Below are positions 2,865 to 55,911 of a DNA stretch of 64,000 bases, in pieces. The stretch spans positions 88,120 to 152,119 of the forward strand of contig MGRM01000012.1 of NCBI GenBank assembly GCA_001798185.1, read 5' to 3'. Made by a program: the position numbers and the translations under genes. The first letter of the stretch is position 1, and each line of letters starts with the position of its first letter. Under the pieces are notes generated by a model, which made no database searches, had not been told where the DNA came from, and worked only from the letters and a program-made list of their open reading frames with translations. Source of the stretch: Deltaproteobacteria bacterium RIFCSPHIGHO2_02_FULL_44_16. GTDB taxonomy: Bacteria > UBA10199 > 2-02-FULL-44-16.

Positions 2865-5744
2865 ATGCGCCAGGAACTGGTCATCCGAGGGGCCCGGATG
2901 CACAATTTAAAAAATATCGATGTGACGATTCCGAAGAATAAACTCGTGGTCATTACAGGGCTTTCCGGGTCAGGGAAGTCGTCACTTGCCTTTGACACCA
3001 TCTATGCCGAAGGCCAGCGGCGCTATGTCGAATCGGTCTCAGCCTATGCTCGCCAATTCTTGGAGCAGATGGAAAAACCCGACGTCGACTCTATCGAAGG
3101 ACTCTCCCCTGCGATTTCGATCGAACAGCGCACAAGTTCCCGAAATCCTCGCTCAACGGTCGGTACCTCTACTGAAATTTATGACTATCTCCGTGTTCTC
3201 TTTGCTCGTGCGGGTCGGCCCCATTGTTACAAATGCGGACGTGCGATTCAGGCACAAACAGTTTCACAAATGATCGATCAGATTTTAAAACTCCCTTCAG
3301 GAACAAAGATCGGAATTTTAGCTCCGATCGTACGCGGCAGAAAGGGCGAATATACGAAGGATCTTGAACGACTGGCCCGACAGGGCTTTGTACGGGCGCG
3401 CGTTGATGGCAATGTGGTGTCACTCGATCAAAAAATCACGATCGATAAAAAGAAAAAACATAACATCGATCTTTATGTCGATCGGCTCGTGATTAAAGAT
3501 GATATCACCACGCGTCTTGCCGATTCTCTTGAAACTGCTCTCGGTCAAGGCGAAGGGCTTGTGAAGATTGAACTGATAAGCAATGCTGTCATTCCCGCGA
3601 AGGCGGGAATCTCAAAAAATTCACTGGATCCCCGCTTACGCGAGGATGACAATCAAGAAATTCTTTTCTCCGCAAAACATGCGTGTGCTTATTGTGGGCT
3701 CAGTTATCCCGAAATTAATCCTCAACTCTTTTCGTTCAACAGTCCTCGTGGAGCTTGCCCAGCTTGCGAAGGTCTTGGGACGCGACTCTATTTCGATCCG
3801 AATCTCGTCATTCCCAACCACAACCTTTCACTTCGCGAAGGAGCGATTGCGCCATGGCGAACAAAAGCTTCAACAGCCTATATTAATCTCTGCGAAGCGC
3901 TCGCAAAGCATTATGGATTCGATATTCGCACGGCATTTGCCAAACTTCCTCCTCACATTCAAAATGCGATTCTTATGGGTTCGGGGGAAGAAGAAATTAC
4001 CTTTGCCTTTGAAGGGACAGAACGAGAAAAAATAAAAACACGTTTTGAAGGAATCATTCCTCAACTCGAACGACGATGGAAAGAGACAAGCTCCATGGAC
4101 ATTCGTGAAGAACTCGAATGTTTTATGAATCGTCGTCCCTGTCCTACGTGCCAAGGAACTCGTCTTCGTCCTGAAGGAAGAAGTATTCTTATTGGTGGAA
4201 AAAACATTTCACACGTCACGGCATTTTCTATTCGCGAATGCATGCGTTTTATTTCGACGCTTGACCTCACCAAAAAAGAGGCAACGATTGCGGAAAAAGT
4301 TTTAAAAGAGATTCGTGAACGTCTCGGTTTTCTGATTGATGTGGGACTTGACTATCTCACACTCGATCGCACAAGTGGAACACTTTCAGGAGGAGAAGAT
4401 CAACGCATTCGACTGGCAACGCAGATTGGATCTGCACTTACGGGTGTTCTCTATGTCCTTGATGAACCTTCGATTGGTCTTCATCAACGCGATAATGATC
4501 GTCTTCTTCAAACCATGAAACGATTACGCGATTTGGGAAATACGCTTATCGTCGTTGAACATGATCGCGACACCATGGAGCACGCTGATCATATTATTGA
4601 TCTCGGGCCTGAAGCGGGTGTGAGGGGGGGCTATGTCGTTGCCACCGGAACTCCGAGTGATATCAAACGAAATTCTAAATCGCTTACCGGACAATATCTC
4701 TCTGGAAAAAAGAAAATCGATGTTCCACGAGATCGTCGCACTTCTTTGCTGGACGAACTTATTATAAAAGGAGCACGCGAGCATAATCTCAAAAACATCG
4801 ATATTTGTATTCCCTTGGGAGTTCTTACCTGCGTCACCGGAGTCTCAGGCTCGGGAAAATCGACGCTTGTGAATGAAACCCTTTTACAAGGTCTGAAGCA
4901 AAGACTCGAACAATCCAAGGAAACCGCAGGAAAGGTAGATGACATCATTGGATGGCAGAAGCTCGATAAAGTCATTGATATCGATCAGTCTCCGATTGGC
5001 CGAACTCCTCGCTCCAATCCCGCAACCTATACGAGTATTTTTACGCATATCCGCGATCTCTTTGCAGAACTCCCTCAATCGAAAGCGCGCGGATATAAAC
5101 CAGGTCGGTTTTCTTTTAACGTCAAAGGGGGCCGATGCGAAGCGTGCGAAGGCGATGGCATCATTCGAATCGAAATGCATTTTCTCCCCGACGTGCATGT
5201 CGAGTGTGAAGTCTGCGCAGGAAAACGCTTTAATCGCGAAACACTCGAGGTTCATTATAAAGGATCTTCTATTGCAGATGTTTTAAGTATGACCGTGAAT
5301 CAAGCTTTTACTTTTTTTGAAAATATTCCGTCGATTCATCATAAACTTCAAACGCTCATCGATGTTGGCATGGGCTACATTGAGCTTGGCCAATCAGCCA
5401 CAACTCTTTCAGGCGGCGAAGCTCAGCGCATTAAGCTTTCGCGCGAACTTGCGCGACGCGCAACCGGGAGAACTCTTTATATCTTAGATGAACCAACAAC
5501 TGGTCTTCACTTTGATGATGTGCGAAAACTCCTCACTGTCCTCAACCGGCTTATCGATCAAGGAAATACTATTGTCGTCATTGAGCATAACCTTGACGTG
5601 ATCATGTCTGCTGATTACTGTATCGACTTGGGACCTGAAGGGGGAGAAAAAGGTGGCTTTCTCATCGCCACAGGAACACCTGAAGAGCTTGCTGCCCACC
5701 CTACTTCATATACCGGATTTTATTTACGAGAACTTCTTTCATGA
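2865..5744 (+). CDS. uvrA: excinuclease ABC subunit A (UvrA); carries an in-frame repeat insertion
   Basis: two ABC ATPase modules ([25 protein letters not shown]; LSGGE signature twice) and zinc-finger cysteines CxxC; start taken at [17 protein letters not shown]. Confidence 0.95.
3588..3651. repeat. family-1 double-hairpin MITE-like element, inserted in-frame inside uvrA
   Basis: GTCATTCCCGCGAAGGCGGGAATC...GGATCCCCGCTTACGCGAGGATGACA; same element as the intergenic copies; adds the peptide [21 protein letters not shown]. Confidence 0.8.
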
Positions 5745-6720: not shown

Positions 6721-6806
6721 GTCATTGCGAGGAGCGTAAGCTCCGAAGCAATCTCCTGGAGATGCTCTGCTCGGGAGATCGCCACGCCCTTCGGGCTCGC
6801 GATGAC
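6721..6806. repeat. family-3 repeat, copy a (inverted orientation)
   Basis: reverse complement of GTCATCGCGAGCCCGAAGGGCGTGGCGATCTC...CTCGCAATGAC; its terminal ...GCGATGACA supplies the ATG of the downstream apbE paralog. Confidence 0.75.
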
Positions 6807-7731
6807 ACTCACTCGGACTTTTTTCAGAGGTATCTGCGCGTTAATCCTTCCTTTGCTATGGCTCTCTTTCTCATCATCTGCACACGCCCAAACAACAGAA
6901 GACATACGACAAATGAGTCGCCGCTTTGAAATCGGAAACTCTCAAGGGGCCATCATCATTTTAGGCTATGTCAAAGATCAGGCAACGATCGAGAAAATTC
7001 TCGAAATCGCAGCAGGTGAAGCAAAACGCCTTCATGAAATCATCGACTGGAAAAATCCCCAAAGCGAAGTCGCTCGTTTAAATCAAGTCAGTGGTTCCAA
7101 ATTTTATCCGGTGAGCAAAGAAGTGCTGAATATTTTTAAAGCTGCGGCCAGACTTTCCGAATGGACCGAAGGCGCTTTTGATATTGCCGCAGAGTCTCCG
7201 GTAGGCACGTATGAAAATATTAAACTCGATGAAAAAGGTTCGCGCGTACGTCTTCAAAAGAAAAAAATGACGGTTCGTTTCGACGCTATTTTTGATGGCT
7301 ATCTTGCCGATTACCTTATTCGCTATCTTTATGGAGCTGGCATCCATCATGCGATGGTCAAGGTAGGAAATACATTTCGTGGAGTAGGACGTTCGCTCAA
7401 CGGTCCCTGGCGCATTCAAGTTCAGGATGATGAAGGAACCTATGCGCATCGCGCCATGAAACTCACCGTTGGCAACGCAGGTGTTGCTACCGTCAGCGCA
7501 GCTCAGTTTCGCCAAACTCCTCCGATCGATCCCAGAACAAAGCAATCTCTTCCTGTCTGTTGCAAAGGGGCCACGGTTGCAATGAAGGAAGCCGCTCTCG
7601 CGCAAGGCATGGCATACACCATGTTTATCTTAGGTCCTCAAGGCGGTGTTGTTCTCATGGAGCAACTCGGTAATGCCAAAGGCATGGTCGCCGATAATGA
7701 AGGAAAATTTGTGAAAACGAGCGGGTTTTAA
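6802..7731 (+). CDS. FAD:protein FMN transferase (ApbE family) paralog
   Basis: signal peptide (LILPLLWLSFSSSAHA); IDPRTKQS motif; ATVAMKEAALA..; tandem paralog of the upstream gene. The long ORF start at 6694 reads through the repeat and was trimmed. Confidence 0.6.
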   Translation: MTLTRTFFRGICALILPLLWLSFSSSAHAQTTEDIRQMSRRFEIGNSQGAIIILGYVKDQATIEKILEIAAGEAKRLHEIIDWKNPQSEVARLNQVSGSKFYPVSKEVLNIFKAAARLSEWTEGAFDIAAESPVGTYENIKLDEKGSRVRLQKKKMTVRFDAIFDGYLADYLIRYLYGAGIHHAMVKVGNTFRGVGRSLNGPWRIQVQDDEGTYAHRAMKLTVGNAGVATVSAAQFRQTPPIDPRTKQSLPVCCKGATVAMKEAALAQGMAYTMFILGPQGGVVLMEQLGNAKGMVADNEGKFVKTSGF

Positions 7732-8068: not shown

Positions 8069-8084
8069 AGCATGTTTAAAGAGT

Positions 8085-8174
8085 GTCATCGCGAGCCCGG
8101 AGGGCGTGGCGATCTCTAGCAATCACTGTCTGCAGGAGATTGCTTCGTCGCTAACGCTCCTCGCAATGACATAC
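8085..8174. repeat. family-3 repeat, copy b, between the antitoxin and toxin genes
   Basis: GTCATCGCGAGCCCGGAGGGCGTGGCGATCTC...GATTGCTTCGTCGC...CTCGCAATGACATAC with terminal inverted repeats of about 11 bp. Confidence 0.75.
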
Positions 8175-8206
8175 TAGGATTTGCAAACCAACTCTAAGGA
8201 CAGCGT

Positions 8207-9978: not shown

Positions 9979-10002
9979 AATGTTTCCTTAACAGAATATC
10001 GA

Positions 10003-10150
10003 AATGTCTCTCGGAGGCGTTGTCTCGCTACGGCAAAAATCCTCAGACGCCAGATTTTTGCCTGCGCTTCAGCCTGCCGGGTATTGAGGCTTCGTTTCCG
10101 GCGTCTGAAGACGCCGCTCGACAAACGCTTCCTGCGGCCATTTCGATATT
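10003..10150. repeat. family-2 ~150-bp structured element, copy a, intercistronic between pyrE and pyrF
   Basis: about 90% identical to 55402-55560; strong hairpins GGCAAAAATC..GATTTTTGCC and GGCGTCTGAAGACGCC. Confidence 0.75.
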
Positions 10151-10828: not shown

Positions 10829-10845
10829 ATTTTCTCTCACATTTT

Positions 10846-10915
10846 TGTCATCCTCGCGAAAGCGGGGATCCAGTGTTTTGGATATTTCTGGATTCCCGCT
10901 TTCGCGGGAATGACA
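10846..10915. repeat. family-1 double-hairpin element, copy b (intergenic)
   Basis: TGTCATCCTCGCGAAAGCGGGGATCC...GGATTCCCGCTTTCGCGGGAATGACA. Confidence 0.8.
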
Positions 10916-10919
10916 ACTT

Positions 10920-12792: not shown

Positions 12793-12993
12793 TTACATCC
12801 CCTTATTCATTTTTGCTGTAAGCTGTTGATCATTTAATTTCCAGTCGATCTTGCGAAATGCATTTGTTTCTTCTGCCGTTAGCTTCACACCAGTTGATTG
12901 CAATGTTCCTATCGGGTTCTTTCGCATCTTCGTTCTAAAACCAATGTCATTCGCCCACTTCTCAACTAACATTTCAATCTCTTTGCGTGCCAT
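12793..12993 (-). CDS. small paralogous peptide 1 (66 aa), NHLP/Nif11-leader-like
   Basis: MARKEIEMLVEKWANDIGFRTKMRKNPIGTLQSTGVKLTAEE...; AGGAGG RBS 6 nt upstream of the ATG; trimmed from the longer ORF. Confidence 0.6.
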   Translation of the reverse strand: MARKEIEMLVEKWANDIGFRTKMRKNPIGTLQSTGVKLTAEETNAFRKIDWKLNDQQLTAKMNKGM

Positions 12994-13006
12994 TCTTCCT
13001 CCTTGT

Positions 13007-13210
13007 TTAAGCAAGCCATTTACTGACACGTGATTGCAATTCTTGATCACTCAACTTCCAATCAATGTTTTTAAAAGCATTCATTTCTTCTGGTGTCAGC
13101 TTCACTCCTGTTGATGTAAGCGTTGCCATCGGATCTTTTCGCATCTTGGTTCTGAAACCAGCATCACTTGTCCATTTTTCGACTAACATTTCAATTTCCT
13201 TGCGCACCAT
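13007..13210 (-). CDS. small paralogous peptide 2 (67 aa)
   Basis: MVRKEIEMLVEKWTSDAGFRTKMRKDPMATLTSTGVKLTPEE...; own RBS. Confidence 0.6.
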   Translation of the reverse strand: MVRKEIEMLVEKWTSDAGFRTKMRKDPMATLTSTGVKLTPEEMNAFKNIDWKLSDQELQSRVSKWLA

Positions 13211-13240
13211 ATAACCTCCCTATGATTTTCGTTCTCATGA

Positions 13241-13438
13241 CTAATACTTATTTATCCTTGCCTTAAGTTCTTCGTCATTTAAACTCCAGTCAATTTTGCG
13301 AAATGCACCCATTTCTTCGTTTGTTAGTTTCACTCCTGTCGATGTGATCGTTCCCATTGGATCTTTGCGCATCTTTGTTCGGAATCCCATATCATTCGTC
13401 CATTTCTCAACCAATCCTTCAATCTCCTTGCGCACCAT
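13241..13438 (-). CDS. small paralogous peptide 3 (65 aa)
   Basis: MVRKEIEGLVEKWTNDMGFRTKMRKDPMGTITSTGVKLTNEE...; AGGAGG RBS. Confidence 0.6.
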   Translation of the reverse strand: MVRKEIEGLVEKWTNDMGFRTKMRKDPMGTITSTGVKLTNEEMGAFRKIDWSLNDEELKARINKY

Positions 13439-13453
13439 ATATCCTCCTTTTGA

Positions 13454-13654
13454 TCAAGGTATCTTAGAAACTCTGGTTTTTAGTTCCTCATCACTTAGTT
13501 TCCAATCAATCTTGCGGAACACTGACATTTCTTCGGGGGTAAGTTTCACTCCCGTTGTTTGCAACGTGTCCTCAGGATTCTGCCGCATGTTCTTGCGAAA
13601 CATCTGGTCGTTCATCCACTTGTCGAACAACATGTCGATTTCTTTTTTTCCCAT
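13454..13654 (-). CDS. small paralogous peptide 4 (66 aa)
   Basis: MGKKEIDMLFDKWMNDQMFRKNMRQNPEDTLQTTGVKLTPEE...; GGAGGAGG RBS; trimmed from the longer ORF. Confidence 0.6.
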   Translation of the reverse strand: MGKKEIDMLFDKWMNDQMFRKNMRQNPEDTLQTTGVKLTPEEMSVFRKIDWKLSDEELKTRVSKIP

Positions 13655-14621
13655 CGTCCTCCTCCTTTGAAAAAAATGAAGCGTTGCGAATAAGCTTCTG
13701 CAGCACTTTTGCTGCAGGCTCAAAAGGTCGCGCTTCCATAAGCGCAGAACGTGCTTTCTCGCAATAAATTTCAGTCACAATCGCTGTCATCCACTTTGCT
13801 CCTGTTGCACTCAGCTGTGTTTGAATTGCACGTCGACTTTTGAGAGAAGATTTTGCATCTTGAAGCGACGTCAAAAAAATTTGCTTTTCCACTCCCTTCA
13901 AACGCTCGAGACAAAAAGCGATTGGAAAGGTTCTCGTGCCATTGGAGATATCCTTACTCTGTTGAGATTCAAAAAGATCATAACAATCTGACGAAAGTTG
14001 ACCCGCAACACCAAGAGCCCTGGCGTATGCCATATAATGTTCAACACATTCTGGATGAGCATTTGCCGTATGTGCTGCAAGGGCTGCAAACATCGCTAAT
14101 TCCTCGCCACTCTTTTTCATGACACTTAACTCAACTGCGTTCGTCGATACTTTACTCTTGTTCACAGATGCAATGTCTTGTTGCTGTCCATCGCTCATGA
14201 TGAGGAGCCCACGCGCAATCGTTTCATGCATGAGATTTTTCTGCTCATGCGAAAGAGAGAGTTTTGCAAGAAGAAGGTGAGGAAACGTGCTGACAAGTGT
14301 TGTTCCTAATATCAATCCTTCTTGAGGAGTTAATTTTCCCTCGTGTTGCAAATCTCCATCCGCAAGATCATCGAGGATATCGATTCCCAAATAGAGTATT
14401 GACGTGAGAACTGGAAGCAAGATGGGAACTTTTTTTGCGGTAATCCCCTCATAGACAGCCGATGGAAGCGAAATAAAGAAAAGTTCACTCTCTTCCGAAA
14501 CGTAGGTTTGAAGACGTTCAACAGCATATGCAAAAAGCCGTCGCTGTTCAGAAGATTGCGACCAGGAAGAGAGTTCATCTTGAAGACGTGACAGAACTTC
14601 AGATGTTTCCGAAGACTTCAA
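13572..14621 (-). CDS. trans-isoprenyl diphosphate synthase-like (polyprenyl synthetase fold) protein
   Basis: first Asp-rich motif DILDDLADGD at the expected position; second motif degenerate (GQLSSDCYDLFE); the 3' end overlaps peptide 4 by about 80 nt in another frame. Confidence 0.55.
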   Translation of the reverse strand: MKSSETSEVLSRLQDELSSWSQSSEQRRLFAYAVERLQTYVSEESELFFISLPSAVYEGITAKKVPILLPVLTSILYLGIDILDDLADGDLQHEGKLTPQEGLILGTTLVSTFPHLLLAKLSLSHEQKNLMHETIARGLLIMSDGQQQDIASVNKSKVSTNAVELSVMKKSGEELAMFAALAAHTANAHPECVEHYMAYARALGVAGQLSSDCYDLFESQQSKDISNGTRTFPIAFCLERLKGVEKQIFLTSLQDAKSSLKSRRAIQTQLSATGAKWMTAIVTEIYCEKARSALMEARPFEPAAKVLQKLIRNASFFSKEEDDGKKRNRHVVRQVDERPDVSQEHAAES

Positions 14622-19055: not shown

Positions 19056-19481
19056 ATGGCAAGTCTGAACAAAGTTATTCTCATCGGCAATTTAGGACAA
19101 GATCCTGAAAAAAAAGTGACTGGAAGCGGCCAAACCGTGGTTCATTTTAGTGTCGCTACTTCGGAGCGCTGGAACGATAAAAGTGGACAGAAACAAGAGA
19201 AAACCGAGTGGCATCGTATTGTGGTTTGGGGACAGCAAGCTGAAAATTGCGCGCAATATCTTGCAAAAGGTCGTCAAGCTTACATCGAAGGACGACTTCA
19301 AACTCGTCAATGGGAAGATAAAGAAGGCAACAAGCGTTACACGACAGAAGTCGTAGCTCAGCGCGTTCTCTTTTTAGGTGGAAGCAAAGGAGAGTCGCAG
19401 GCGTTTGAAGGTGCGACTGCTACAGCTCCATCGATGCCTTCTTTTGATGCTGATGCTGTGCACGATGATGTGCCGTTTTAA
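19056..19481 (+). CDS. ssb: single-stranded DNA-binding protein
   Basis: OB-fold N-terminus [12 protein letters not shown]...; acidic tail ending DDVPF. Confidence 0.9.
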
Positions 19482-19627
19482 AAAAACCAATTTCAAAACT
19501 GACAAATGATTCGGGTGGCACCGACGGTGTATCCCAGGGGTGCCCCACCCACGGTTTATGGGTGGGGAGGTGGAACGCCGGAGGTGACAGGACCCGTAAC
19601 AATTAAATGTTTTGAAATTGGTTTTTT
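19481..19627. repeat. family-4 element, copy A, lying inside a perfect 19-bp palindrome between the ssb stop and the stop of the convergent gene
   Basis: core 19500-19608 (AATGATTCGGGTG...CAGGACCCGTAACAA) flanked by AAAAAACCAATTTCAAAAC / GTTTTGAAATTGGTTTTTT. Confidence 0.65.
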
Positions 19628-19631
19628 ATTA

Positions 19632-20654
19632 TTACTTACCAAACAATGACGCAGTTCTTATCCCAATCGAAGCAAAGAGCGTGAAATCGACTGACGGGCC
19701 GTGTCCGGTAATGTCCTCAGCAAAACCAAATTGCCAAATAAAATCTTGTTTTCCCAAAAGTTCTTTGTGATCACCTTTCAACCCAACAATAAGATCGAGG
19801 GGAACACCGCCCCATTGATCGCTTAAGCTCTTGAGTAATGGCGAACCGCCTTGCAACTGAGCGATTACTGACCAGTCTTTGTAAAGATTGATGTCTCCGG
19901 CGACCATAAACTGAAATGAGACTTCGTACATATAATCTTCAATCTTCGAATTGCCAGGAGTGATGTAGGGTCCCGCATTGGCATAGAGATGAAATCGATT
20001 TCCCAGTTTTTTCTCAAGCGCAACTCCAAGACCAAAATCAGGACTGCCACTGCTCAGCCCACGTTTTTGTTGACCGGTTGGAATCTTAAAATCCAAAAAC
20101 CACGCAAGGGCTAACGCCCTTTTCTGGGTTTCTTGAAATTGGTGTTTAAGATGCAATGTCACATCTCCCACTCCCCATCCAAGATCAGGATAGTTGATGC
20201 GATCGACACCATACGAAGTCAGTCGATAGGAAAAGCGACCGTTATTGACCGTTTCTCTCCCACCGCGCGGGAAATGAAAGAGACTATGATAGTCCTCGAT
20301 AAAGGAATCGAGAAAACCGCCATCAAAACGATAGAAAGGGAGTTCGGCCCCTACTTCAAAACCCTTTCCAAGTCCGAGCTGAGCAATAATTGCTGTTCGC
20401 AACAACTCCATATCAAGATCAGCGTCACTATGCTCAGCAACTGCTTCTTCAAACAGATTTGAAAACGCAACGTCAGTGCGTAACTCCAACTTCCCCTGCG
20501 GAAGTGCAACTGGACGCATGGGAGTGAGACCTAAGTTTTGAAGATAGATCGGATGCTGGATGCGATTCGTCAGTGGCCCGAGCGCGGGAAAGTCATTGGC
20601 AAAGCCAATACGTGGAAGAAGAAAAAATACCCCGAAAATAAAAATTCGTTTCAT
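19632..20654 (-). CDS. predicted outer-membrane beta-barrel protein (hypothetical)
   Basis: signal peptide MKRIFIFGVFFLLPRIGFA; alternating amphipathic strands; C-terminal aromatic residue. Confidence 0.4.
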   Translation of the reverse strand: MKRIFIFGVFFLLPRIGFANDFPALGPLTNRIQHPIYLQNLGLTPMRPVALPQGKLELRTDVAFSNLFEEAVAEHSDADLDMELLRTAIIAQLGLGKGFEVGAELPFYRFDGGFLDSFIEDYHSLFHFPRGGRETVNNGRFSYRLTSYGVDRINYPDLGWGVGDVTLHLKHQFQETQKRALALAWFLDFKIPTGQQKRGLSSGSPDFGLGVALEKKLGNRFHLYANAGPYITPGNSKIEDYMYEVSFQFMVAGDINLYKDWSVIAQLQGGSPLLKSLSDQWGGVPLDLIVGLKGDHKELLGKQDFIWQFGFAEDITGHGPSVDFTLFASIGIRTASLFGK

Positions 20655-20656
20655 AA

Positions 20657-20795
20657 ATAAGAAGTCATTTCAAAAGTTCATTTGTTACGGGTCCTGCCGC
20701 CTGCGGCATTCCGTAAGCTCCGCTTATATGCGGAAGCTTCCGAAATAGCCTCCGGCGTCACCCGAATCATTATCTCTTTTGAAATGACTTCTTAT
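20657..20795. repeat. family-4 element, copy B (inverted relative to copy A), inside a perfect 20-bp palindrome overlapping the trxB stop
   Basis: core 20677-20775 is the reverse complement of the copy A termini; flanked by ATAAGAAGTCATTTCAAAAG / CTTTTGAAATGACTTCTTAT. Confidence 0.65.
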
Positions 20796-21721
20796 TCAAG
20801 AGTATGCAGATACCTTTCCGCATCAATAGCTGCCATGCAGCCGGTGCCACACGCGGTGACTGCTTGACGATAGACGTGGTCTTGGACATCACCTGCTGCG
20901 AAGACTCCGGGGACACTCGTTTCCATCGAAGATTTTTTCGTCACGATATATCCGTTCGGCTCAAGTTCAAGCTGACCGCGAAAAACATCCGTATTTGGCT
21001 GATGGCCAATCGCAATAAAAACTCCTCCACATGAAATCTCCGAAACTTTTCCTGTTTTGAGATTTTTCATGCGAACGCCGGTGACTTTATCCGCTTTGAC
21101 ATCGAGAATTTCTTCAACAGCAGAATCCCACACAAAATCGATTTTCGGATTTTCAAAAGCTTTCTTTTGCATTGCTTTTGATGCACGGAGTTCATCGCGA
21201 CGATGAACAATGGTGACCTTGCTTGCAAATTTCGTGAGATAGGTTGCCTCTTCAAGAGCTGTATCTCCCCCACCCACGACCACCAAATCCTGACCTTTAA
21301 AGAAAAAACCGTCACATGTCGCACACGCAGAAACTCCTTTGCCCATAAGCTTCATCTCCGCGGGAAGCCCAAGCAACTTGGCACTCGCACCGGTTGCTAC
21401 AATGATGGTGTGAGATTCGTATACATTTTTTCCATCGACTTCGACCTTGAATGGTCGTTTTGAAAAGTCGACTTTGGTCACCGTCCCGTTCACAAATTTC
21501 GTCTCAAACCGTGCTGCTTGTTTGCGCATGGCGTCCATCAGCTCAGGACCGAGAATCGGATTTTCAAAACCGGGATAATTTTCAACGTCACTGGTAATCA
21601 TGAGCTGACCACCGGGTTGCGTTCCATCAATAATAAGCGGCAGAAGATCAGCGCGGGCTGCATAAATAGCAGCCGTGAGTCCCGCACCGCCTGAGCCAAG
21701 AATAATCACTTTGTGAACCAT
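20792..21721 (-). CDS. trxB: thioredoxin-disulfide reductase
   Basis: GSGGAG FAD motif, CATC redox centre, GGGDTA NADPH motif; start at MVHKVIILGSG. Confidence 0.9.
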   Translation of the reverse strand: MVHKVIILGSGGAGLTAAIYAARADLLPLIIDGTQPGGQLMITSDVENYPGFENPILGPELMDAMRKQAARFETKFVNGTVTKVDFSKRPFKVEVDGKNVYESHTIIVATGASAKLLGLPAEMKLMGKGVSACATCDGFFFKGQDLVVVGGGDTALEEATYLTKFASKVTIVHRRDELRASKAMQKKAFENPKIDFVWDSAVEEILDVKADKVTGVRMKNLKTGKVSEISCGGVFIAIGHQPNTDVFRGQLELEPNGYIVTKKSSMETSVPGVFAAGDVQDHVYRQAVTACGTGCMAAIDAERYLHTLE

Positions 21722-21796
21722 GGATACCTCCTGAAGAAACACGCACATTTGCGGATTCAACATAAAAGGTCAACGCCACTTATTCAAACACATTAT

Positions 21797-21815
21797 TTAG
21801 GTGCCGTGCACTTAA
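21797..21815. repeat. REP palindrome (RAYT-associated type)
   Basis: TTAGGTGCCGTGCACTTAA, same motif as the copies flanking the RAYT gene. Confidence 0.6.
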
Positions 21816-21953
21816 CTGGGAAAATTCTGATCTCTATTGCTTCAATCACCATTTTGGGGATAAAGGTGAGGAGGATCAAAAGCCGTTATTGTTCGCAACT
21901 TTTTTTCGAGAGCAACGATAATAAAAACGTCAGTGATACTGTAAAGGAATCTT

Positions 21954-22421: not shown

Positions 22422-22557
22422 GATAACGAAAAAAATCTGTTTTCATTTAAACTGAAGCGTTTTCGTACAAAATGTAAAAAAACGCTCCACTTTTATTTTT
22501 ACGATCATTGAAATTTAACCGTTTTCTTTGGCATCACTTTTGCTTTGCATCATTTAT

Positions 22558-24075
22558 ATGCTTGCTCAAGTTTACGCCGCTGCACTCGTGGGAATCGAAA
22601 CGCAACTCGTCGAAGTGGAAGTCGACGTTCAAATGCAAGGCCTTCCTGGTTGGAGCATGGTCGGTCTCCTTGAAACCGCGGTCAAAGAAGCGCGCGATCG
22701 CGTGTTGCCAGCGCTTCGAAATTCTGGATATAAACTTCTCAATCGTCGCACCATTGTAAATCTCGCTCCAGGAAATGTGAAAAAAAGTGGAGCTCATTTT
22801 GATCTCCCCATCGCCATCGGCATGCTCACGGCCTGGAATATTTGCAAACCTCATCCAGACAAACGCTATCTTCTGGCTGGCGAATTATCGCTGACGGGAG
22901 AACTTCTTCCCATTAATGGCGCGCTTCTCATGGCTATTGCTGCGCGGGCTCATCAACTCACGGGCATTATTCTTCCGGTTCAAAATGAAGAAGAGGCAAA
23001 ACTTGTCACTTCAACAGAAGTTGTTGGATTTTCAACATTGACCGAAGTCGTTCAATTTCTCAATGGAGAGTTTGTTCCCACAAAACAGATGCCTCCAAAA
23101 AAACAAAAACGAACTGCGCCGCCACTTAATTTTGGAGAAGTGCGCGGTCAGCCGATCGCGAAACGCGCGCTCGAAATTGCTGCTGCGGGCGGACACAACA
23201 TTTTGATGGTCGGAACACCTGGCTCTGGAAAGACAATGCTTGCAGAGAGATTACCCACAATTCTTCCTCCACTGACTTCTGAAGAAAAATTGGAAACGAT
23301 GAAGGTCTTAAGTCTGCATGGACTTCTTCACGATACGATTCTTTCTGACGAACGCCCTTTTCGTGCTCCGCATCATTCTGCTTCGTATGCAGGGCTTATC
23401 GGCGGCGGTGGAGGGATACCGAAACTTGGAGAAATTTCGCTCGCACACAATGGCGTTCTGTTTATGGATGAGCTTGCTGAGTTCAATCGTAATGTCTTGG
23501 AAGTTCTGCGTCAGCCACTCGAGTCTGGTCTCGTCCGTCTTGTTCGCACTGGAGCGAGCGTCACCTATCCTGCTCGCTTTATGTTGGTGGCTGCGATGAA
23601 TCCGTGTCCTTGCGGATATTATGGTCATCCAAAACGTGCGTGTATTTGTAATATGCATCGTATTCAGCATTATCGACGAAAAGTTTCAGGACCACTGATT
23701 GATCGAATCGACATTCACATTGAAGTCGAACCAGTTCCTCATAAAGATCTGATGGGAGATAAACCGACAGAAACATCTGAGATGATTAAACAGCGAGTCC
23801 TCGCAGCACGAAAAATTCAAGAAGCACGCTACGATTCACGCATTGGTTGTAATGCTCAACTCCATGCTCGTGATTTAAAAAAATTCTGTCCTTTTAAAGG
23901 AAATGCAGAATCGCTTCTCGAAAAAGCGACCGAGAAAATGCACCTCTCAGCTCGCTCAACCCATCGCGTATTGAAAATTGCCCGAACCATCGCCGACCTC
24001 GAATCCTCCGACGCCCTCGGCCCACCTCATATCGCCGAAGCACTGCAGTATAGGCCTACGGATGATGTGCATTAA
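22558..24075 (+). CDS. comM: Mg-chelatase-like AAA ATPase YifB/ComM
   Basis: N-terminal MLAQVYAAALVGIETQLVEVEVD; Walker A GTPGSGKT; C-terminal ChlI-like region. Confidence 0.85.
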   Translation: MLAQVYAAALVGIETQLVEVEVDVQMQGLPGWSMVGLLETAVKEARDRVLPALRNSGYKLLNRRTIVNLAPGNVKKSGAHFDLPIAIGMLTAWNICKPHPDKRYLLAGELSLTGELLPINGALLMAIAARAHQLTGIILPVQNEEEAKLVTSTEVVGFSTLTEVVQFLNGEFVPTKQMPPKKQKRTAPPLNFGEVRGQPIAKRALEIAAAGGHNILMVGTPGSGKTMLAERLPTILPPLTSEEKLETMKVLSLHGLLHDTILSDERPFRAPHHSASYAGLIGGGGGIPKLGEISLAHNGVLFMDELAEFNRNVLEVLRQPLESGLVRLVRTGASVTYPARFMLVAAMNPCPCGYYGHPKRACICNMHRIQHYRRKVSGPLIDRIDIHIEVEPVPHKDLMGDKPTETSEMIKQRVLAARKIQEARYDSRIGCNAQLHARDLKKFCPFKGNAESLLEKATEKMHLSARSTHRVLKIARTIADLESSDALGPPHIAEALQYRPTDDVH

Positions 24076-24090
24076 GTGCCGTGCACTTAA
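24072..24090. repeat. REP palindrome overlapping the comM stop
   Basis: TTAAGTGCCGTGCACTTAA. Confidence 0.65.
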
Positions 24091-24111
24091 TTGAGAAAAA
24101 AGAGGCTTATA

Positions 24112-24741
24112 ATGCCCCGCTACCCCATAATTCATATTCCCGACGGAATTTATTCAGTAACCAGCAAATGCAACAATAATGAATTTCTCTTTGACGCTGA
24201 AGAGAAGTTTCAATTGTATTTACATCATCTCCTAGAATGTAAACGCAAATTGAATTTCATTATCTATGATCTCTGTTGTATGTCGAACCATGTGCATGAA
24301 CTTTATCGTGTCACCCGTGGAATTACGATTGCGGATATTCTTCACACCGTTCGTGGACATTTTTCTCAAAAATTTAATACTCGTTTTGGGCGAAGCGGAC
24401 ATTTTTGGAAAAGCAAACCTTACTATCGTATTGTTGAAGACGAGCAATATGCATTTCATCTCATGAATTATTTTCACTTAAATCCTGTAAAGGCCGGCCT
24501 TGTTGATAAACCTGAAAATTGGCCTTATTCAGGATATCGCTTTCATATGCTCGGGGACCGAAAAGGACTTATGGGGAGACTACTTAATCAAATTCCTGGA
24601 ACTTCGAAATCCACAACATCAGTCGATTCTGAAAACTTGTATTTGAACAAGTTACTTCAACGACGTCGATTACGATTTATTGGAACAGAAGAGTTTATAA
24701 ACAGCATGCAGACAAGATATAAACGAGATAGCGAGAAATAA
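24112..24741 (+). mobile_element. REP-associated tyrosine transposase (RAYT, IS200/IS605 TnpA-like HUH Y1 transposase)
   Basis: MPRYPIIHIPDGIYSVTS N-terminus; HuH motif SNHVHEL; YFHLNPVKAGLVDKPENWPYSGY catalytic-Tyr motif; flanked by REP palindromes. Confidence 0.8.
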
Positions 24742-24815
24742 GTGCCGTGCACTTAAATGAAAAAATTCTCGCTTTAAATGCATTTTTCTTCCAAATAAGT
24801 GCACGGCACTTAAGT
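24739..24815. repeat. inverted pair of REP palindromes (BIME-like) immediately 3' of the RAYT gene
   Basis: TAAGTGCCGTGCACTTAA at 24739-24756 and the inverted copy TAAGTGCACGGCACTTAAG at 24797-24815, separated by about 40 bp. Confidence 0.65.
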
Positions 24816-24819
24816 AAAG

Positions 24820-27468
24820 TTGACACCGTTCTTCATATCAGCACAAATCTCTCCCATGCCAATAACCTTGATCACAGGCCCGGTAGGCTCAGGGAGAACC
24901 ACTCTTCTTTTTGAAAAACTTTCGGATGCGCTTGCCAAAGGGAAAGCGGTTTACATTGCCCCCAATGAAACACTGGCAACTGAGCTTCGTACGGCGTTTC
25001 TTTCCTTTCTTGAAGAGAGTGGAAAGCGCGCAGCGCTCGTGGGCGACATTTTTCTCTCTCTTCGCAGCTTTGTTTATCGTCTGACACAAAAAACACCGAC
25101 GATGACTTCATTTCAGCAAACTCTTCTCTGTTTTGAGCTTCTTCAATCACAACAGCTCCGCTATTTCGATCCTCATCACATTTCATTTCAAATCGCTCGA
25201 GATGCAGCGAGCAGCATTCATACACTAAAGAAAAACGGAATTTCTCCGGAGCAACTTGAAGTCCTTCTCGAAACTCGTGGTTCATTACAGGAGTACGACC
25301 TCCTCACTCTTTTTAAACGTTATGAAACAAAACGAGAGGACCTTCATCTTCTCGACGAAGGTGATCTTTTTCAAAGGGCTTGCAGCCTTTCATATACAGG
25401 AGAGATATTTGTCGATGAATTTACTCATCTTCAACCAGGCGAACGGACTCTTTTCCAAAACCTTGCAGCGCAGACACACATGCATCTCACGCTTCCCGAA
25501 GCTGATGATGAGCATCAACCTTTTGCCTCTTTTTTGAAAAAATCAATCAGTACCCTTCAACCACTCACTCACACACATCAACAATTACCAAAAAAAAATC
25601 ATGAAATGGCGCAAACCACGCTTCTTTCGTTACGTTCTTCTTTAGATGAAACACGATTTTGTCTTCAACAACTCCTTGGGACTGAGGATGAATCTTTTTC
25701 ACCTGCCATGATCGTCACTCGGCAGCGATCTGCTTTTCCAAAAATCTTATTTCAAGAATGGAAAAACGTGCAAAACCCAGAAAGAGCGCCAGCTCCGGTT
25801 TCTCGAATCTTTTCCGAAATCCTTCAGATTTCGTTACCAGAAGAGGCTTCACTGCTTACGTTTGCGGAACAACTTCGTAAATCATTGCAACCCACGCACA
25901 GCGATCCTTCTCTGCATCTTCGTTTCTTACATCTTCTTCAGACTCTCTCTGCACAAGCACATCTCCTTCAATTGAAAACATTTTCGCGAACCGAATTTTA
26001 TGAAATCATTCAATTTCATTTGGAACAAGAGAACATCCATCAACCACAACTCCCCTTCGAGACACGGAGTTTTGAAAGAAGTATTTCACAACCACACCCG
26101 AGAATCATCATTCCTGAAATGAACGAAGGGAATATTCCTTTTCTTGCTCCGGAACATTTTTTCTTCTCAGACCAGCTCGACTTCTCAGCCTCTCCAAACC
26201 CTCTGTTAGATGAAATTTTTCCTGCAGCAGATCAACTATTAGCACTGGATGCTTTTCGATTTTATACGTTTCTCACGAAAGCTACCGAAGAAGTTGTGCT
26301 GACCTTTTCTCTTCTCGATCACAAAGGGCAGGAAACAATCCCGTCCTCTTTTGTCAAAAACTTTGGTCCCCCACTGCCCATAGAATCTCAGGTTTTTTCA
26401 CCTGAAGCTCTGCAGACCCTCGGAACAGAGGCGCTTCTTCAGCGCATCACTATTGAGCAAGAGCGAAGAGCGATGCGAAAAGATCATCTCTCCTACCACG
26501 GTCTTATTCAAGACCCGGAAGCGCGAAAGCTCCTCAAAGAGCGCTTTACTCAGGAATGTTTCAGTCCCTCTCGTCTTGAAACCTACGCTGAGTGTCCGAT
26601 GCGTTTCTTTTTTGAAAAAGTTTTAGGACTCAAACCTGAAGAAGAGATCACTCCTGAAGTTCAACCCAAAGACCGAGGAACTATTATTCATGCTCTTCTA
26701 GAATGCTTTTATCGCGACTATCGCAATCTTTTTTCAGCGGCGCTTACTGATGCTTCAAAAGAGAAAGAGATCTCAGCACTTCTCGATCAACTTCTGGATG
26801 AAGTTTTTCTTCAGCACGATCATCTCTTGCAACAAAGCGCTCCGGCGCTTCGCCCCTTTGAACGAAAAGCTATTCGAAAAGTGATTGAAAAAACACTTTT
26901 CCTCGAACTTGAAACAGCCCGCGCTCTCTCAACTCCTCTCTTGCCTTCACACTGTGAGTGGATTTTTGGAACAGAACACGTAAAACCACTTTCGCTTTCT
27001 CTCGAAAATGATGATGACATTTTGATTCAAGGACGTGTCGATCGTATCGATGTGTCGCACGATGGTTCTTCTTTTCTCATTGTCGATTACAAAACCGGAA
27101 AATCGATTGAAAGCATTCGAAAAAAAATTGAAGATGGGCTTCATCTTCAAATTCCACTGTATATTGCCGCAGTCCAAAAACTTCTTCTTCCACACGCTTC
27201 CGCTCTTGGCGGACTTCTGTTTGCGGTCATGAAAGGTGAAAAGACCTCAGGCATGTTGAAAAAAGAACATAACGAAAAAAGTTTTTCCCTTTCATCTCGT
27301 TCGCGCGCGTTGATTTCGGAAGAAGAGTGGGAAGATCTTTTAGAGACAAGTTTCAAATATACCCGTGACTATGTCACCGCGATACGAAATGGAAATTTTT
27401 CACATCTGACATCTGAGCCGTGCAAGTACTGTACATTCGCACAAGCGTGTCGCAGAGGAACGTCATGA
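24820..27468 (+). CDS. AddB/RexB-like helicase-nuclease subunit (PD-(D/E)xK nuclease)
   Basis: N-terminal Walker A GPVGSGRTT; C-terminal nuclease motif RVDRIDV...IVDYKTGK and cysteine cluster C..C..C..C; the true start may be at the internal Met at 24856. Confidence 0.65.
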   Translation: MTPFFISAQISPMPITLITGPVGSGRTTLLFEKLSDALAKGKAVYIAPNETLATELRTAFLSFLEESGKRAALVGDIFLSLRSFVYRLTQKTPTMTSFQQTLLCFELLQSQQLRYFDPHHISFQIARDAASSIHTLKKNGISPEQLEVLLETRGSLQEYDLLTLFKRYETKREDLHLLDEGDLFQRACSLSYTGEIFVDEFTHLQPGERTLFQNLAAQTHMHLTLPEADDEHQPFASFLKKSISTLQPLTHTHQQLPKKNHEMAQTTLLSLRSSLDETRFCLQQLLGTEDESFSPAMIVTRQRSAFPKILFQEWKNVQNPERAPAPVSRIFSEILQISLPEEASLLTFAEQLRKSLQPTHSDPSLHLRFLHLLQTLSAQAHLLQLKTFSRTEFYEIIQFHLEQENIHQPQLPFETRSFERSISQPHPRIIIPEMNEGNIPFLAPEHFFFSDQLDFSASPNPLLDEIFPAADQLLALDAFRFYTFLTKATEEVVLTFSLLDHKGQETIPSSFVKNFGPPLPIESQVFSPEALQTLGTEALLQRITIEQERRAMRKDHLSYHGLIQDPEARKLLKERFTQECFSPSRLETYAECPMRFFFEKVLGLKPEEEITPEVQPKDRGTIIHALLECFYRDYRNLFSAALTDASKEKEISALLDQLLDEVFLQHDHLLQQSAPALRPFERKAIRKVIEKTLFLELETARALSTPLLPSHCEWIFGTEHVKPLSLSLENDDDILIQGRVDRIDVSHDGSSFLIVDYKTGKSIESIRKKIEDGLHLQIPLYIAAVQKLLLPHASALGGLLFAVMKGEKTSGMLKKEHNEKSFSLSSRSRALISEEEWEDLLETSFKYTRDYVTAIRNGNFSHLTSEPCKYCTFAQACRRGTS

Positions 27469-30293: not shown

Positions 30294-30317
30294 GACCATC
30301 TGAAAAACTTCAAAAAT

Positions 30318-30387
30318 GTCATTCCCGCGCAGGCGGGAATCCAGTATTGTCAGTAACTTCTGGATCCCTGCCTTCGCAGGGATGACA
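30318..30387. repeat. family-1 double-hairpin element, copy c (between convergent genes)
   Basis: GTCATTCCCGCGCAGGCGGGAATCC...GGATCCCTGCCTTCGCAGGGATGACAA. Confidence 0.8.
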
Positions 30388-36035: not shown

Positions 36036-37199
36036 TTACTCAGAAATGCGCGTTACATAAATCGGATTATGCCCACTAGACGCTCCTTTAAAACTAAGAG
36101 TTCCATCTACGCCAATGCTCGAAATCTCATAAATTTCTGGTACGCTATCCCTGCTTGTCTGACATCGAACTCTGGTTCCGGGGTATAGCCCGTTTTGCTC
36201 GATAGCCTGAAACCTTTCAGCAGTTGAAAAACCATGAGGACCATCAATCCTTCGGAATTCGAATCTATTGCGCGGAACAGGTTTTCTCTTTAAACTTTTC
36301 ATGAGCGCACAATATCGACCATATGCATGATCAACCTTCAAACGACTCTTGAATTGTTCAATCAAGTTGGAAGCAAGCTCACTTAAAGATTTACTTCCTT
36401 TTGCCATCTCGACCGTCGCACGAAGAGAACGTAATAGCGTTGGTCTTTCTTTTAAATATGCACTTCGATCAGCTTGTTCAATAAGTTCATCTGTTGCATC
36501 ATCTAGCGCTTGCGCAAGGTCATTATCTGTAGGACCAGATTGTCCAGATCCTTCTCCACCATCAACTGATGACATAAAGATGGGAACACTTCCGACAGAA
36601 ACAATGGCCGCAGTATCAATGGAGATGGCCATTCCACTTGCTGCAGCAGCTTGAACCAAAGCCCCTTGACTTCCTGGAACAAAGGCAGGCATTGGAAAAG
36701 TTTCCGCTGGAGTGAGACGCAGTGGAGTTGTTCCACTCAGCGGAGCTCCAGCAGCCGCTACATCGAAGGCAATAAAAAGACCATCACTCACTGCAGCTCC
36801 TAACTCAGATTCATTGCGAGCATTTTGCGCCATTTCTACTCGATCAGGGATTGATTTTAAAACTTCGGGAATCATTGCCATTCCCCAGACGGCATAACAG
36901 GAAATCATGGAAAAACCATACATAGGACCAAAATCAACACCAAGAGCCACAGAAACAGCATCATCACATTTCTCCCAATGAGAACGAACCCCAGTATCTC
37001 TTTCCCAAAAGGCATCGACTGTTCTGGATGAATACCCCAAACCAAATTGATACCAGTTAAAGGAGGGGCTGTAAGCATCAGAGAATTCAGCAATTGATTG
37101 AGTTGAGTTGAGTTGAGTTGAGTTGAGTTGAGTTGAAAACAGCTCTTCACTATTGAGGCAACTCGTTACTAAAGGATCACAGCGATCGATATTGGTCAT
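36036..37199 (-). CDS. hypothetical protein with a pentanucleotide repeat tract in its 5' coding region (putative phase-variable)
   Basis: 387-aa ORF; codons about 21-33 are encoded by (CTCAA)7, giving STQLNSTQLNSTQ. Confidence 0.4.
   Translation of the reverse strand: MTNIDRCDPLVTSCLNSEELFSTQLNSTQLNSTQSIAEFSDAYSPSFNWYQFGLGYSSRTVDAFWERDTGVRSHWEKCDDAVSVALGVDFGPMYGFSMISCYAVWGMAMIPEVLKSIPDRVEMAQNARNESELGAAVSDGLFIAFDVAAAGAPLSGTTPLRLTPAETFPMPAFVPGSQGALVQAAAASGMAISIDTAAIVSVGSVPIFMSSVDGGEGSGQSGPTDNDLAQALDDATDELIEQADRSAYLKERPTLLRSLRATVEMAKGSKSLSELASNLIEQFKSRLKVDHAYGRYCALMKSLKRKPVPRNRFEFRRIDGPHGFSTAERFQAIEQNGLYPGTRVRCQTSRDSVPEIYEISSIGVDGTLSFKGASSGHNPIYVTRISE
37093..37136. repeat. (TTGAG)7 pentanucleotide microsatellite
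   Basis: 7 perfect tandem TTGAG units plus partial flanking units. Confidence 0.9.
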
Positions 37200-49082: not shown

Positions 49083-49136
49083 GAAAGGTTGCGGCTTTTT
49101 ACCTGTTCCATAATATGCGGGGCGTCGGTGAGGGGG
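49083..49136. repeat. duplicated purF 3'-end fragment (distal direct repeat)
   Basis: 41 nt identical to 50921-50961 (TTTTTACCTGTTCCATAATATGCGGGGCGTCGGTGAGGGGG) plus an upstream AAAGGTTGCG match with an indel. Confidence 0.8.
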
Positions 49137-50899: not shown

Positions 50900-50961
50900 A
50901 AAGGTTGCGTCAATTTTTACTTTTTACCTGTTCCATAATATGCGGGGCGTCGGTGAGGGGG
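50900..50961. repeat. proximal direct repeat, which is the authentic purF 3' end
   Basis: see 49083-49136. Confidence 0.8.
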
Positions 50962-52295: not shown

Positions 52296-52324
52296 AGAAT
52301 AAATCCTTTAGTTAGGGTCTGATG

Positions 52325-52486
52325 TCATCGCGAGCCAAAAGGGCGTGGCGATCTGACCGAAGGTCATCCTGAGGCAAAGCCGAAGGATCTCCCGGAGATC
52401 CCTCGCTTTCGCTCGGGACGACACTTTGTGTCGGATTGCTTCGTCGTCCCCCAAGATTCGTGGGGGACTCCTCGCAATGACATACA
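52325..52486. repeat. family-3 repeat, copy c; composite form with a nested insert about 75 bp long
   Basis: family-3 termini GTCATCGCGAGCC...CTCGCAATGACATAC enclosing GTCATCCTGAGG...CTCGCTTTCGCTCGGGACGAC. Confidence 0.7.
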
Positions 52487-52504
52487 GATCTTTGCAAACA
52501 TACC

Positions 52505-55401: not shown

Positions 55402-55560
55402 CCAAATTCAAAACGTCTCTCGGAGGCAACCTCTCACTACGGCAAAAATCCTCACACGCCAGATTTTTGCCTGCGCTTCAGCCTGCTGGGTATTGAGGCT
55501 TCGTTTCCAGCGTCTGAAGACGCCGCTCGAGGCTCGCCTCCTTCGGCCGTTTTTAAATTA
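55402..55560. repeat. family-2 structured element, copy b, intercistronic between purS and purQ
   Basis: about 90% identical to 10003-10150. Confidence 0.75.
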
Positions 55561-55800: not shown

Positions 55801-55826
55801 AATAACTCCTATCCCAAACTGATTTT

Positions 55827-55911
55827 GTCATCCCTGCGAAGGCAGGGATCCAGAAGCTTGTCCCCACGAAGGTGGGGATTTCACTGGATTCCCGCCTACG
55901 CGAGAATGACA
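55827..55911. repeat. family-1 element, copy e (three-hairpin variant) between purB and purS
   Basis: GTCATCCCTGCGAAGGCAGGGATCC...GTCCCCACGAAGGTGGGGAT...GGATTCCCGCCTACGCGAGAATGACA. Confidence 0.8.

Follow-up and report, generated by a model that had tools for sequence, protein, structure and literature searches.

A putative family of miniature inverted-repeat elements brackets an outer-membrane-protein gene in a Rifle-aquifer deltaproteobacterium

Why is a single outer-membrane-protein (OMP) gene bordered on both sides by long, perfectly matched palindromes that carry related inserts in opposite orientation? The question is raised by a 64,000-nt stretch of Deltaproteobacteria bacterium RIFCSPHIGHO2_02_FULL_44_16 (contig MGRM01000012.1, positions 88,120 to 152,119; hereinafter the window), in which two elements, designated A (19481-19627, + strand) and B (20656-20796, − strand), bracket an OMP gene of the DUF3187 family. 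An earlier, sequence-only reading of this region took the palindromes to be host sequence split by a ~100-bp mobile element, and further suggested that the OMP gene could be inverted. Our analysis indicates instead that A and B are probably two copies of a small, non-coding transposable element of the miniature inverted-repeat type (MITE), belonging to a previously undescribed family (hereinafter family 4) of an ordinary bacterial repeat kind.

Element A is 147 nt long and element B is 141 nt long, and the only open reading frames (ORFs) inside them are spurious, overlapping ones. The arms of A match perfectly over 19/19 bp (AAAAAACCAATTTCAAAAC at 19481-19499 against GTTTTGAAATTGGTTTTTT at 19609-19627), and the arms of B match perfectly over 21/21 bp (AATAAGAAGTCATTTCAAAAG; 20656-20676 against 20776-20796). 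Specifically, A starts on the + strand with a left terminal inverted repeat (TIR; AAAAAACCA followed by ATTTCAAAAC, 19481-19499, identified from the sequence by an inverted-repeat search), an A/T-rich linker that is unpaired in the predicted fold (TGACA, 19500-19504), and a 5' conserved block (AATGATTCGGGTG, 19505-19517), which was located by pattern search and pairs in the fold with the 3' block (CGGGU/ACCCG). A GC-rich rod-like core of A type (19518-19587), defined by folding and alignment, is followed by the 3' conserved block (CAGGACCCGTAACAA, 19588-19602, pattern search), a second A/T-rich linker (TTAAAT, 19603-19608, fold), and the right TIR (GTTTTGAAAT followed by TGGTTTTTT, 19609-19627, recovered by sequence, fold and inverted-repeat search). 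Element B was delimited by the same methods and lies on the − strand. Read along the element strand, it consists of a 5' TIR (AA TA AGAAGTC ATTTCAAAAG, 20776-20796), the 5' block AATGATTCGGGTG (20759-20771), a rod-like GC-rich core of B type (20697-20758), the 3' block CAGGACCCGTAACAA (20682-20696), and a 3' TIR (CTTTTGAAAT GACTTCT TA TT, 20656-20676).

The arms, the inner blocks and the overlap with stop codons that the sequence-only reading described are all present in the sequence. The palindrome at B is likewise present and perfect, but it is 21 bp rather than 20 bp long and begins ~10 nt to the right of the start implied earlier. The shared ATTTCAAAA motif does belong to the element ends, but the unit is the whole ~140-150 nt and not the inner ~100 nt. 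The exact runs common to A and B are only 13, 15 and 9 nt long, and overall identity is ~65%. Exactly two copies were found in the window by exact-pattern and covariance-model searches. Perfect inverted repeats of at least 11 bp with a spacer of 30-250 nt number ~10 in the window (41 seed hits, compared with ~3 in shuffled sequence).

A metagenome scan with both inner blocks fixed recovered four extra copies in a second Rifle-aquifer metagenome-assembled genome (MAG), located after hemB and before polA, after recA (between recA and alaS), between alaS and efp, and after spoIID. A covariance model built from six copies found three more, beyond the reach of the exact pattern: in the second MAG, a divergent copy located upstream of prpD (L168:4626-4775; L numbers denote examined loci) and, just outside the window in the same genome, copy C in front of deoC and copy D between a surA-like gene and pdxA. 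The genome of the window contains at least four copies in ~84 kb (A, B, C and D), and the second MAG contains five. A scan of species-representative genomes with both inner blocks fixed gave 0 matches; neither Rifle MAG is apparently in that collection.

Alignment of the nine copies, four from the genome of the window and five from the second MAG, reveals one common plan. From end to end, it comprises TA, a variable arm, ATTTCAAAAC, an A/T-rich linker of 5-9 nt, a GATTCGGGTG-like block, a GC-rich rod, a CAGGACCCGTAAC-like block, a linker of 6-12 nt, GTTTTGAAAT, the complementary arm, and TA again. The TIR is 17-21 bp long and is made of the variable outer part and ATTTCAAAAC. The core exists in two subtypes, A and B, both found in both genomes, and elements of either type are 76-82% identical in nucleotide sequence between the two MAGs. 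In the first four extra copies, the inner blocks look invariant because the search pattern demanded them; in the copies found with the model the blocks vary (AATTGGGGGTG, ATTACGGGTG, a form ending in CCCGAAAAC, and a form ending in GTAAG). The segment CAGGACCCG is invariant in 9/9 copies. TA is present at both boundaries in seven of the nine, with A as the first element base in six of these. Orientation relative to transcription varies: four of the first six copies lie in sense orientation downstream of a gene, while the copy at L024 and copy D are antisense.

The comparison of copies bears directly on the origin of the palindromes. Both B and the prpD copy, which lie at unrelated loci in different genomes, begin with TAAGAA, and copy C begins with TAAGAAC. 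The arms of copy D are TAGAAGTC-ATTTCAAAA and TTTTGAAAT-AACTTCTA (in full, TAGAAGTCATTTCAAAA and TTTTGAAATAACTTCTA), and TAGAAGTC-ATTTCAAAA is the exact consensus of a TIR class, (Y)TA-GARGYC-ATTTCAAAAC, that is described below; GAAGTC-ATTTCAAAA in the 5' arm of B is a variant of the same class TIR. Taken singly, the two halves of the element are not palindromic. Judged from these sequence comparisons, the palindrome halves are the elements' own TIRs, not host terminators split by insertion.

According to the sequence-only reading, a ~100-bp element (GATTCGGGTG...CAGGACCCGTAAC) targets the center or loop of palindromic terminators. Such a model resembles the way in which IS1397, ISKpn1 and IS621 insert into REP. 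Several features agree with such targeting: a palindrome flanks every copy, the outermost arms and the linkers differ between copies with near-identical cores, the arms overlap host stop codons in five of the nine copies, and the terminal dinucleotides at L017 are inverted (TG/CA) rather than direct. However, the arms of different copies are homologous, and conserved arm sequence (ATTTCAAAAC together with GAAGTC or AGAA...) surrounds unrelated cores in many phyla and is accompanied there by direct target duplications. The TAAGAA start common to B and the prpD copy is equally at odds with host palindromes. No empty palindrome of the form ATTTCAAAAS-N(0-30)-STTTTGAAAT was found in the window, and only 3 short, chance-like cases were found in 1.15 Mb of examined sequence. 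Moreover, without the element the arms would form an AT-rich palindrome that has no loop and is no terminator. We therefore regard insertion into existing palindromes as very unlikely. IS1397 and ISKpn1, which insert in REP/BIME loops, and IS621, which inserts in REP (cited in PMC3184786), apparently also lie between palindrome halves, as here; unlike in those systems, the halves of family 4 travel with the insert.

Comparison with related genomes, which had been proposed as a way to find empty palindromic sites, revealed the same gene order with neither elements nor palindromes at the junctions. In relatives, the spacers of recA-alaS-efp are 9-53 nt long, and the junctions of comM-trxB-OMP-ssb hold a spacer of 15 nt, an ordinary terminator or some other repeat. 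These junctions also argue against pre-existing palindromes as targets. Because the relatives are distant, presence and absence show gain or loss and not an exact empty site. Best non-self amino-acid identity is at most 72% for trxB of the window and at most 84% for recA of the second MAG. Judged by this conserved gene order, the OMP gene is ancestral at its position and was not brought by the elements. A composite transposon carrying the OMP gene was rejected, since the comM-trxB-OMP-ssb synteny is ancestral.

Two features of the relatives were seen in passing. A distant relative with the trxB-OMP-ssb synteny has a 148-aa Y1_Tnp gene (IS200/RAYT-like; L026:585-1031) beside comM, which may be related to the REP-like repeats of the lineage. 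In the OMP-ssb spacer of another distant relative (L028:5085-5200), an ordinary terminator lies between tandem GTGAACG heptamers and their reverse complement.

The ends of family 4 are found far beyond these two genomes. A scan of one genome per species, in which only ATTTCAAAAC-N(95-125)-GTTTTGAAAT was fixed, gave at least 120 matches, compared with an estimated ~34 expected by chance. Among the matches listed with full flanks, GA occupies positions −6 and −5 of each arm in 54/119, defining the consensus (Y)TA-GARGYC-ATTTCAAAAC. The hosts among the matches listed include Desulfobacterales, Victivallales, Alphaproteobacteria, Pirellulales, candidate-phyla-radiation bacteria and others, with multiple copies within genomes. 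The elements are 115-145 nt long and fall into at least 7 clusters by core, the cores of different clusters being unrelated to one another; L061:2001-2131, L141:1404-1544, L047:6347-6476 and L100:2589-2731 are examples from loci L031-L150. Direct flanking repeats of 4 bp were observed for 8 of the listed elements (0.4 expected) and repeats of 5-6 bp for 3 (0.1 expected), while TA flanks were observed for 18 (11.8 expected), in the context CTA|...|TAG. Alignment scores between the core of family 4 and those of other class members equal the shuffled null. A search of Rfam with class members in 10 loci gave no match, and a search for the class TIR strings in the searchable literature returned only unrelated primers.

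An apical hairpin motif, GCGCAGC(R)TAC-loop-GTA(Y)GTGAGCA, was noticed by eye in otherwise different class cores, at L049, L061 and L084 (Desulfobacterales) and at L047, L104 and L115 (Alphaproteobacteria). A related motif, GCGCGCAACGAAGTGAGCAC, is present at L069 (Candidatus Roizmanbacteria), and its reverse complement at L147. This may reflect a conserved RNA motif or binding site.

Small size, lack of coding capacity, TIRs and dispersed copies are found here, with target duplications in the wider class, and together these features define a MITE; the suggestion in the sequence-only reading of a MITE or an element derived from an insertion sequence is borne out to that extent. Bacterial MITEs, including Correia/CREE of Neisseria, ERIC, RUP, Chunjie and Nezha, are likewise ~100-250 bp long, non-coding, multi-copy and intergenic, with TIRs; they too are tolerated inside operons, form very stable RNA hairpins and have TA-flanked termini. 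Correia elements duplicate TA. Family 4 differs in being unrelated in sequence to any named family that could be checked, in having outer arms that vary between copies yet stay mirrored, and in its core, a rod of unusually high GC content within a 44% GC genome. For ERIC-type elements, TA has been reported at both termini (PMC3184786), and bacterial MITEs can supply stop codons or terminator-like structures (PMC3184786; PMC10969869).

A plausible mechanism of movement can be proposed from these features. The copies would have moved in trans, by cut-and-paste, through a DDE transposase encoded by an insertion sequence of the IS5 family (IS427/IS1031-like). Insertion would occur at TA within A/T-rich gene boundaries, TA would be duplicated, and the element would start with A. 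The parent would then be a 0.8-1.3-kb element bounded by TAGAAGTCATTTCAAAAC and encoding an IS5-family DDE transposase. Once inserted, the element would be co-transcribed with its neighbors and fold into a long interrupted hairpin. Published ends that resemble the class are those of IS1237 (IS5 family, IS427 group), which has inverted repeats GAGGTGGTTTCAGTAGTCG and a TTA/TAA duplication (PMC2516522). Specifically, GAGGTGGTTTCAGTAG of IS1237 matches the class form GAGGTAATTTCAAAAC at 12/16 positions; the IS427/IS1031-like ends read GAG/GAA and then (G/A)(G/A)TTTCA; and the short A/T duplications (TTA/TAA for IS1237) resemble the TA or 4-bp A/T-rich repeats of the class. This likeness extends over 16 nt and one published TIR, and the duplication length in the class ranges from 2 to 6 bp. 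The IS427/IS1031 group of the IS5 family is the closest set of candidate parents, as a lead and not as proof.

Several observations weigh against a transposase-mobilized MITE. A search of all examined loci for TIR pairs 650-2000 bp apart, as well as scans of viral contigs, found no autonomous insertion sequence with matching ends in ~1.15 Mb of examined loci or in the viral contigs, where only chance matches in phage genes were obtained. (A 779-bp candidate at L155/L161 proved to consist of phage structural genes.) TA is self-complementary, and a target duplication is indistinguishable from the last inverted-repeat pair in the family-4 copies; the flanks at L017 are TG...CA, inverted and not direct, and the copy at L021 is without TA. 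The relatives are distant (83-84% amino-acid identity for recA, 46-48% for OMP), and no exact empty site was seen. A simple terminator/promoter scan flags nothing at the elements, although the scan cannot score a 109-nt 'loop'. Finally, the outermost 4-9 nt of the arms differ strongly where the cores are ~95% identical (L021, L024, L025), yet are mirrored in each copy. A simple transposase-binding TIR does not predict such mirrored variation.

According to gene calls and Pfam, A fills the spacer between the convergent genes ssb (PF00436 SSB; 19056-19481, + strand) and the DUF3187 OMP gene (19632-20654, − strand), while B fills the spacer between the end of trxB, which encodes thioredoxin reductase (20792-21763, − strand), and the start of the OMP gene, lying downstream of trxB in sense orientation. 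The TAA stop codon of ssb (19479-19481) consists of the flanking TA and the first A of A, and the stop codon of trxB (20792-20794) lies within the 5' arm of B; the stop codon of the OMP gene (19632-19634) is 4 nt beyond the right-arm end of A. In five of the nine copies the terminal triplet is the stop codon of a neighbor: TAA for ssb, trxB, alaS and spoIID, and TGA for hemB, where the flanking dinucleotide is TG. In the proposed mechanism, insertion into the TA of a stop codon would rebuild a TAA stop. The overlap with stop codons noted by the sequence-only reading is real, but terminator hairpins need not be invoked for it, because insertion at TA together with the first base A of the element, which would rebuild TAA, would account for the overlap.

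At the other end of the element, the next start codon follows after 0-3 nt in three copies, those before the OMP gene, deoC and pdxA. The 3' TIR of B ends 1 nt upstream of the ATG start codon of the OMP gene (20652-20654), and the start sites at element ends lie at 20652-20676 of the window, L172:13339-13353 (deoC) and L171:5200-5210 (pdxA). No recognizable Shine-Dalgarno sequence was found at these three genes. At all three, as read from the sequence, the whole spacer is element sequence, with the translation-start region in the predicted basal TIR stem. B would thus place the translation-start region of the OMP gene inside its basal stem, and this stem would affect OMP expression. A split ribosome-binding site, in which the hairpin juxtaposes a Shine-Dalgarno sequence and the start codon, was considered and dropped, because none is suitably spaced upstream of B, C or D. 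The OMP gene is called 45 codons shorter (295 aa) in some assemblies, and one gene caller places a 47-aa ORF inside A (19451-19594 region; L007:3451-3594), almost certainly a spurious annotation that results from the MITE.

The predicted folds are exceptionally stable for the composition of the elements, with energies of −68.3 kcal/mol for A (z = −6.1) and −54.7 kcal/mol for B (z = −7.1) relative to shuffled sequences. In the alignment, 92% of pair cells are paired, compared with 84% in shuffles and 37-53% in slid controls, and both sides have changed in 14/44 pairs, compared with 7.2 expected. With 9 G.U cells and 8 A.C cells, neither RNA strand is favored. The mirrored variation reaches into the arms: A differs from the L017 copy at four arm positions, three of the differences being mirrored, and mirrored changes are present even inside the conserved 10-mer in copy C (ACTTCAAAAC/GTTTTGAAGT) and in the prpD copy (ATCTCCAAAA/TTTTGGAGAT). 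In the wider class, TIR changes within core clusters comprise 38 one-arm and 6 mirrored changes; most changes thus affect one arm, and mirrored change is not universal. Selection on the hairpin and hairpin-templated (quasi-palindrome) repair are both plausible ways in which the arms are kept matched.

In copy A the hairpin is followed by U6 when read on the + strand and by U7 when read on the − strand. Situated between the convergent ssb and OMP genes, with A6-7 before and U6-7 after the hairpin, A would probably act as a bidirectional terminator. In SPRITE, a dispersed repeat, the hairpin and U-tract likewise resemble a Rho-independent terminator (PMC10969869), and copy A is similar in both directions. 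Unlike SPRITE, B and other copies are without a clear U-tract, and some copies lie directly before start codons.

These properties raise the possibility that the elements act first of all as a structured, functional RNA or 3'-UTR element (a terminator, a stability or processing hairpin, or a protein-binding RNA) maintained by selection, with mobility secondary or lost. The compensatory changes along the rod point in this direction, as do the mirrored arms inside the 10-mer of copy C and the prpD copy, the invariance of CAGGACCCG, the conserved asymmetric internal loops, the U-tracts of A in both directions, and the sense orientation of four of the first six copies downstream of a gene. The 76-82% identity of the elements between the MAGs, set beside the amino-acid identities of trxB and recA given above, also counts in favor. 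Other observations point away from this reading. The elements lie in either orientation to transcription, G.U cells are about as frequent as A.C cells, and a search of Rfam 15 at the elements, covering the window and the region, gave no match at E-values up to 10. The positions of the elements differ between the two genomes, and relatives are without them. The invariance of the blocks is partly due to ascertainment, since the search pattern required them, and the two MAGs come from one aquifer, so that horizontal spread can explain the similarity. We consider a primarily functional RNA unlikely.

A broader proposal is that the GARGYC-ATTTCAAAAC 'shell' defines an uncatalogued cross-phylum class of hairpin elements in which the arms are actively kept complementary and the GC-rich cores (for family 4, with the invariant CAGGACCCG) are functional structured nucleic acids and not junk. 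We put this forward tentatively and think it unlikely. If it were true, the arms would be maintained by hairpin-templated repair or by selection on folded RNA or single-stranded DNA, and the cores could function, for example, as terminators or insulators that allow an element to occupy the gap from a stop codon to the following start codon.

A second repeat family of the window, D2, may be related to the same class. Its two copies (9995-10150 and 55405-55560) are ~155 nt long and 87% identical, and have a branched GC-rich fold. Each copy has its own palindromic basal arms. In copy 1 they are AATATCGAAATG/CATTTCGATATT and match perfectly over 12 bp; in copy 2 they are AAATTCAAAACG/CGTTTTTAAATT, and the right end of this copy is GAGAATTAATTTAAAAAC. 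By sequence, the arms resemble divergent forms of the class TIR, with the changes once more mirrored. A D2-like fragment, AAAAGTCTCTCGGAGGCGTTGTC, adjoins copy D (L171:5021-5043).

The inverted arrangement of A and B had suggested that recombination between them might flip the OMP gene, which would give phase variation. In favor, the two copies do lie in inverted orientation around a single surface-protein gene; alaS in the second MAG is likewise flanked by an inverted pair, and short metagenome contigs break inside the elements. The breaks can be attributed to a 33-nt run (CAAAACTGACAAATGATTCGGGTGGCACCGACG) shared by A and the L017-type copies of the same community. All contigs that contain both ssb and the OMP gene, from several metagenomes, have the same arrangement with identical elements, and relatives without elements keep the same relative orientation. 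Furthermore, A and B are ~65% identical with no exact run longer than 15 nt, there is no recombinase gene in the immediate trxB-OMP-ssb neighborhood, and alaS is essential and lies inside a co-directional cluster. Inversion of the OMP segment is accordingly extremely unlikely. The pair at alaS suggests that inverted pairs arise by chance at such a density of elements.

Other known systems were considered and set aside. REP/REPIN sequences mobilized by RAYT (HUH) were rejected because the element halves are not palindromes, the class has target duplications, and a Y1_Tnp gene was seen only in the distant relative at L026. An integron attC site was rejected on the sequence, in which GTTACGG and GTTTTGA depart from the GTTRRRY core site, and on the inverted placement of the copies on either side of the gene. 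Readings of the inner blocks as a retron, K-turn, Y-RNA, 6S or ribozyme were dropped because the defining motifs or an adjacent gene are lacking.

The MITE family is new and of a known kind; the uncatalogued cross-phylum TIR class and the mirrored evolution of the arms stand out. For annotation, a false lead is removed, as neither a hairpin-targeting mobile element nor an invertible OMP switch is supported at the locus. Spacers that consist wholly of MITE sequence from stop to start codon affect the calling of terminators, ribosome-binding sites and small ORFs. The TIR class, which occurs in many uncultured phyla without a literature or Rfam record, could join repeat libraries, and it is suited to testing how long hairpin repeats maintain matching arms.

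The window contains further repeats. Paired hairpin repeats of a REP/dRS3-like family (TGTCATTCCCGCGAAGGCGGGAATC ... GATTCCCGC...GCGGGAATGACA) occupy five loci (3586-3651, 10845-10916, 30316-30387, 39565-39621 and 55825-55911), and the same family is present in the second MAG (L017, L025) and in a distant relative (L028:3862-3955). Another family, GTCATTGCGAGGAGC...GAAGCAATCTCC together with GTGTCATCGCGAGCCCGGAGGGCGTGGCGATCTC, is found at 6721-6810, 8079-8198, 52322-52509 and 63592-63702; an inverted pair of it (6721-6810 and 8081-8170), 90-97% complementary, brackets ~1.3 kb. The palindrome TAAGTGCCGTGCACTTAA, which may be an operator or a REP-like site, is present in three or four copies around comM (22528-24075), at 21790-21840, 24072-24115 and 24739-24820, and two of its copies make up a perfect inverted repeat of 17 bp, separated by a 40-nt spacer (24739-24812). 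Four tandem units of ~217 nt, 63-73% identical, lie at 12802-13665 and are probably a coding region for a repeat domain. An exact 42-nt duplication (49095-49136 and 50920-50961) has its copies 1.8 kb apart, and a (TTGAG)n microsatellite lies at 37098-37136.

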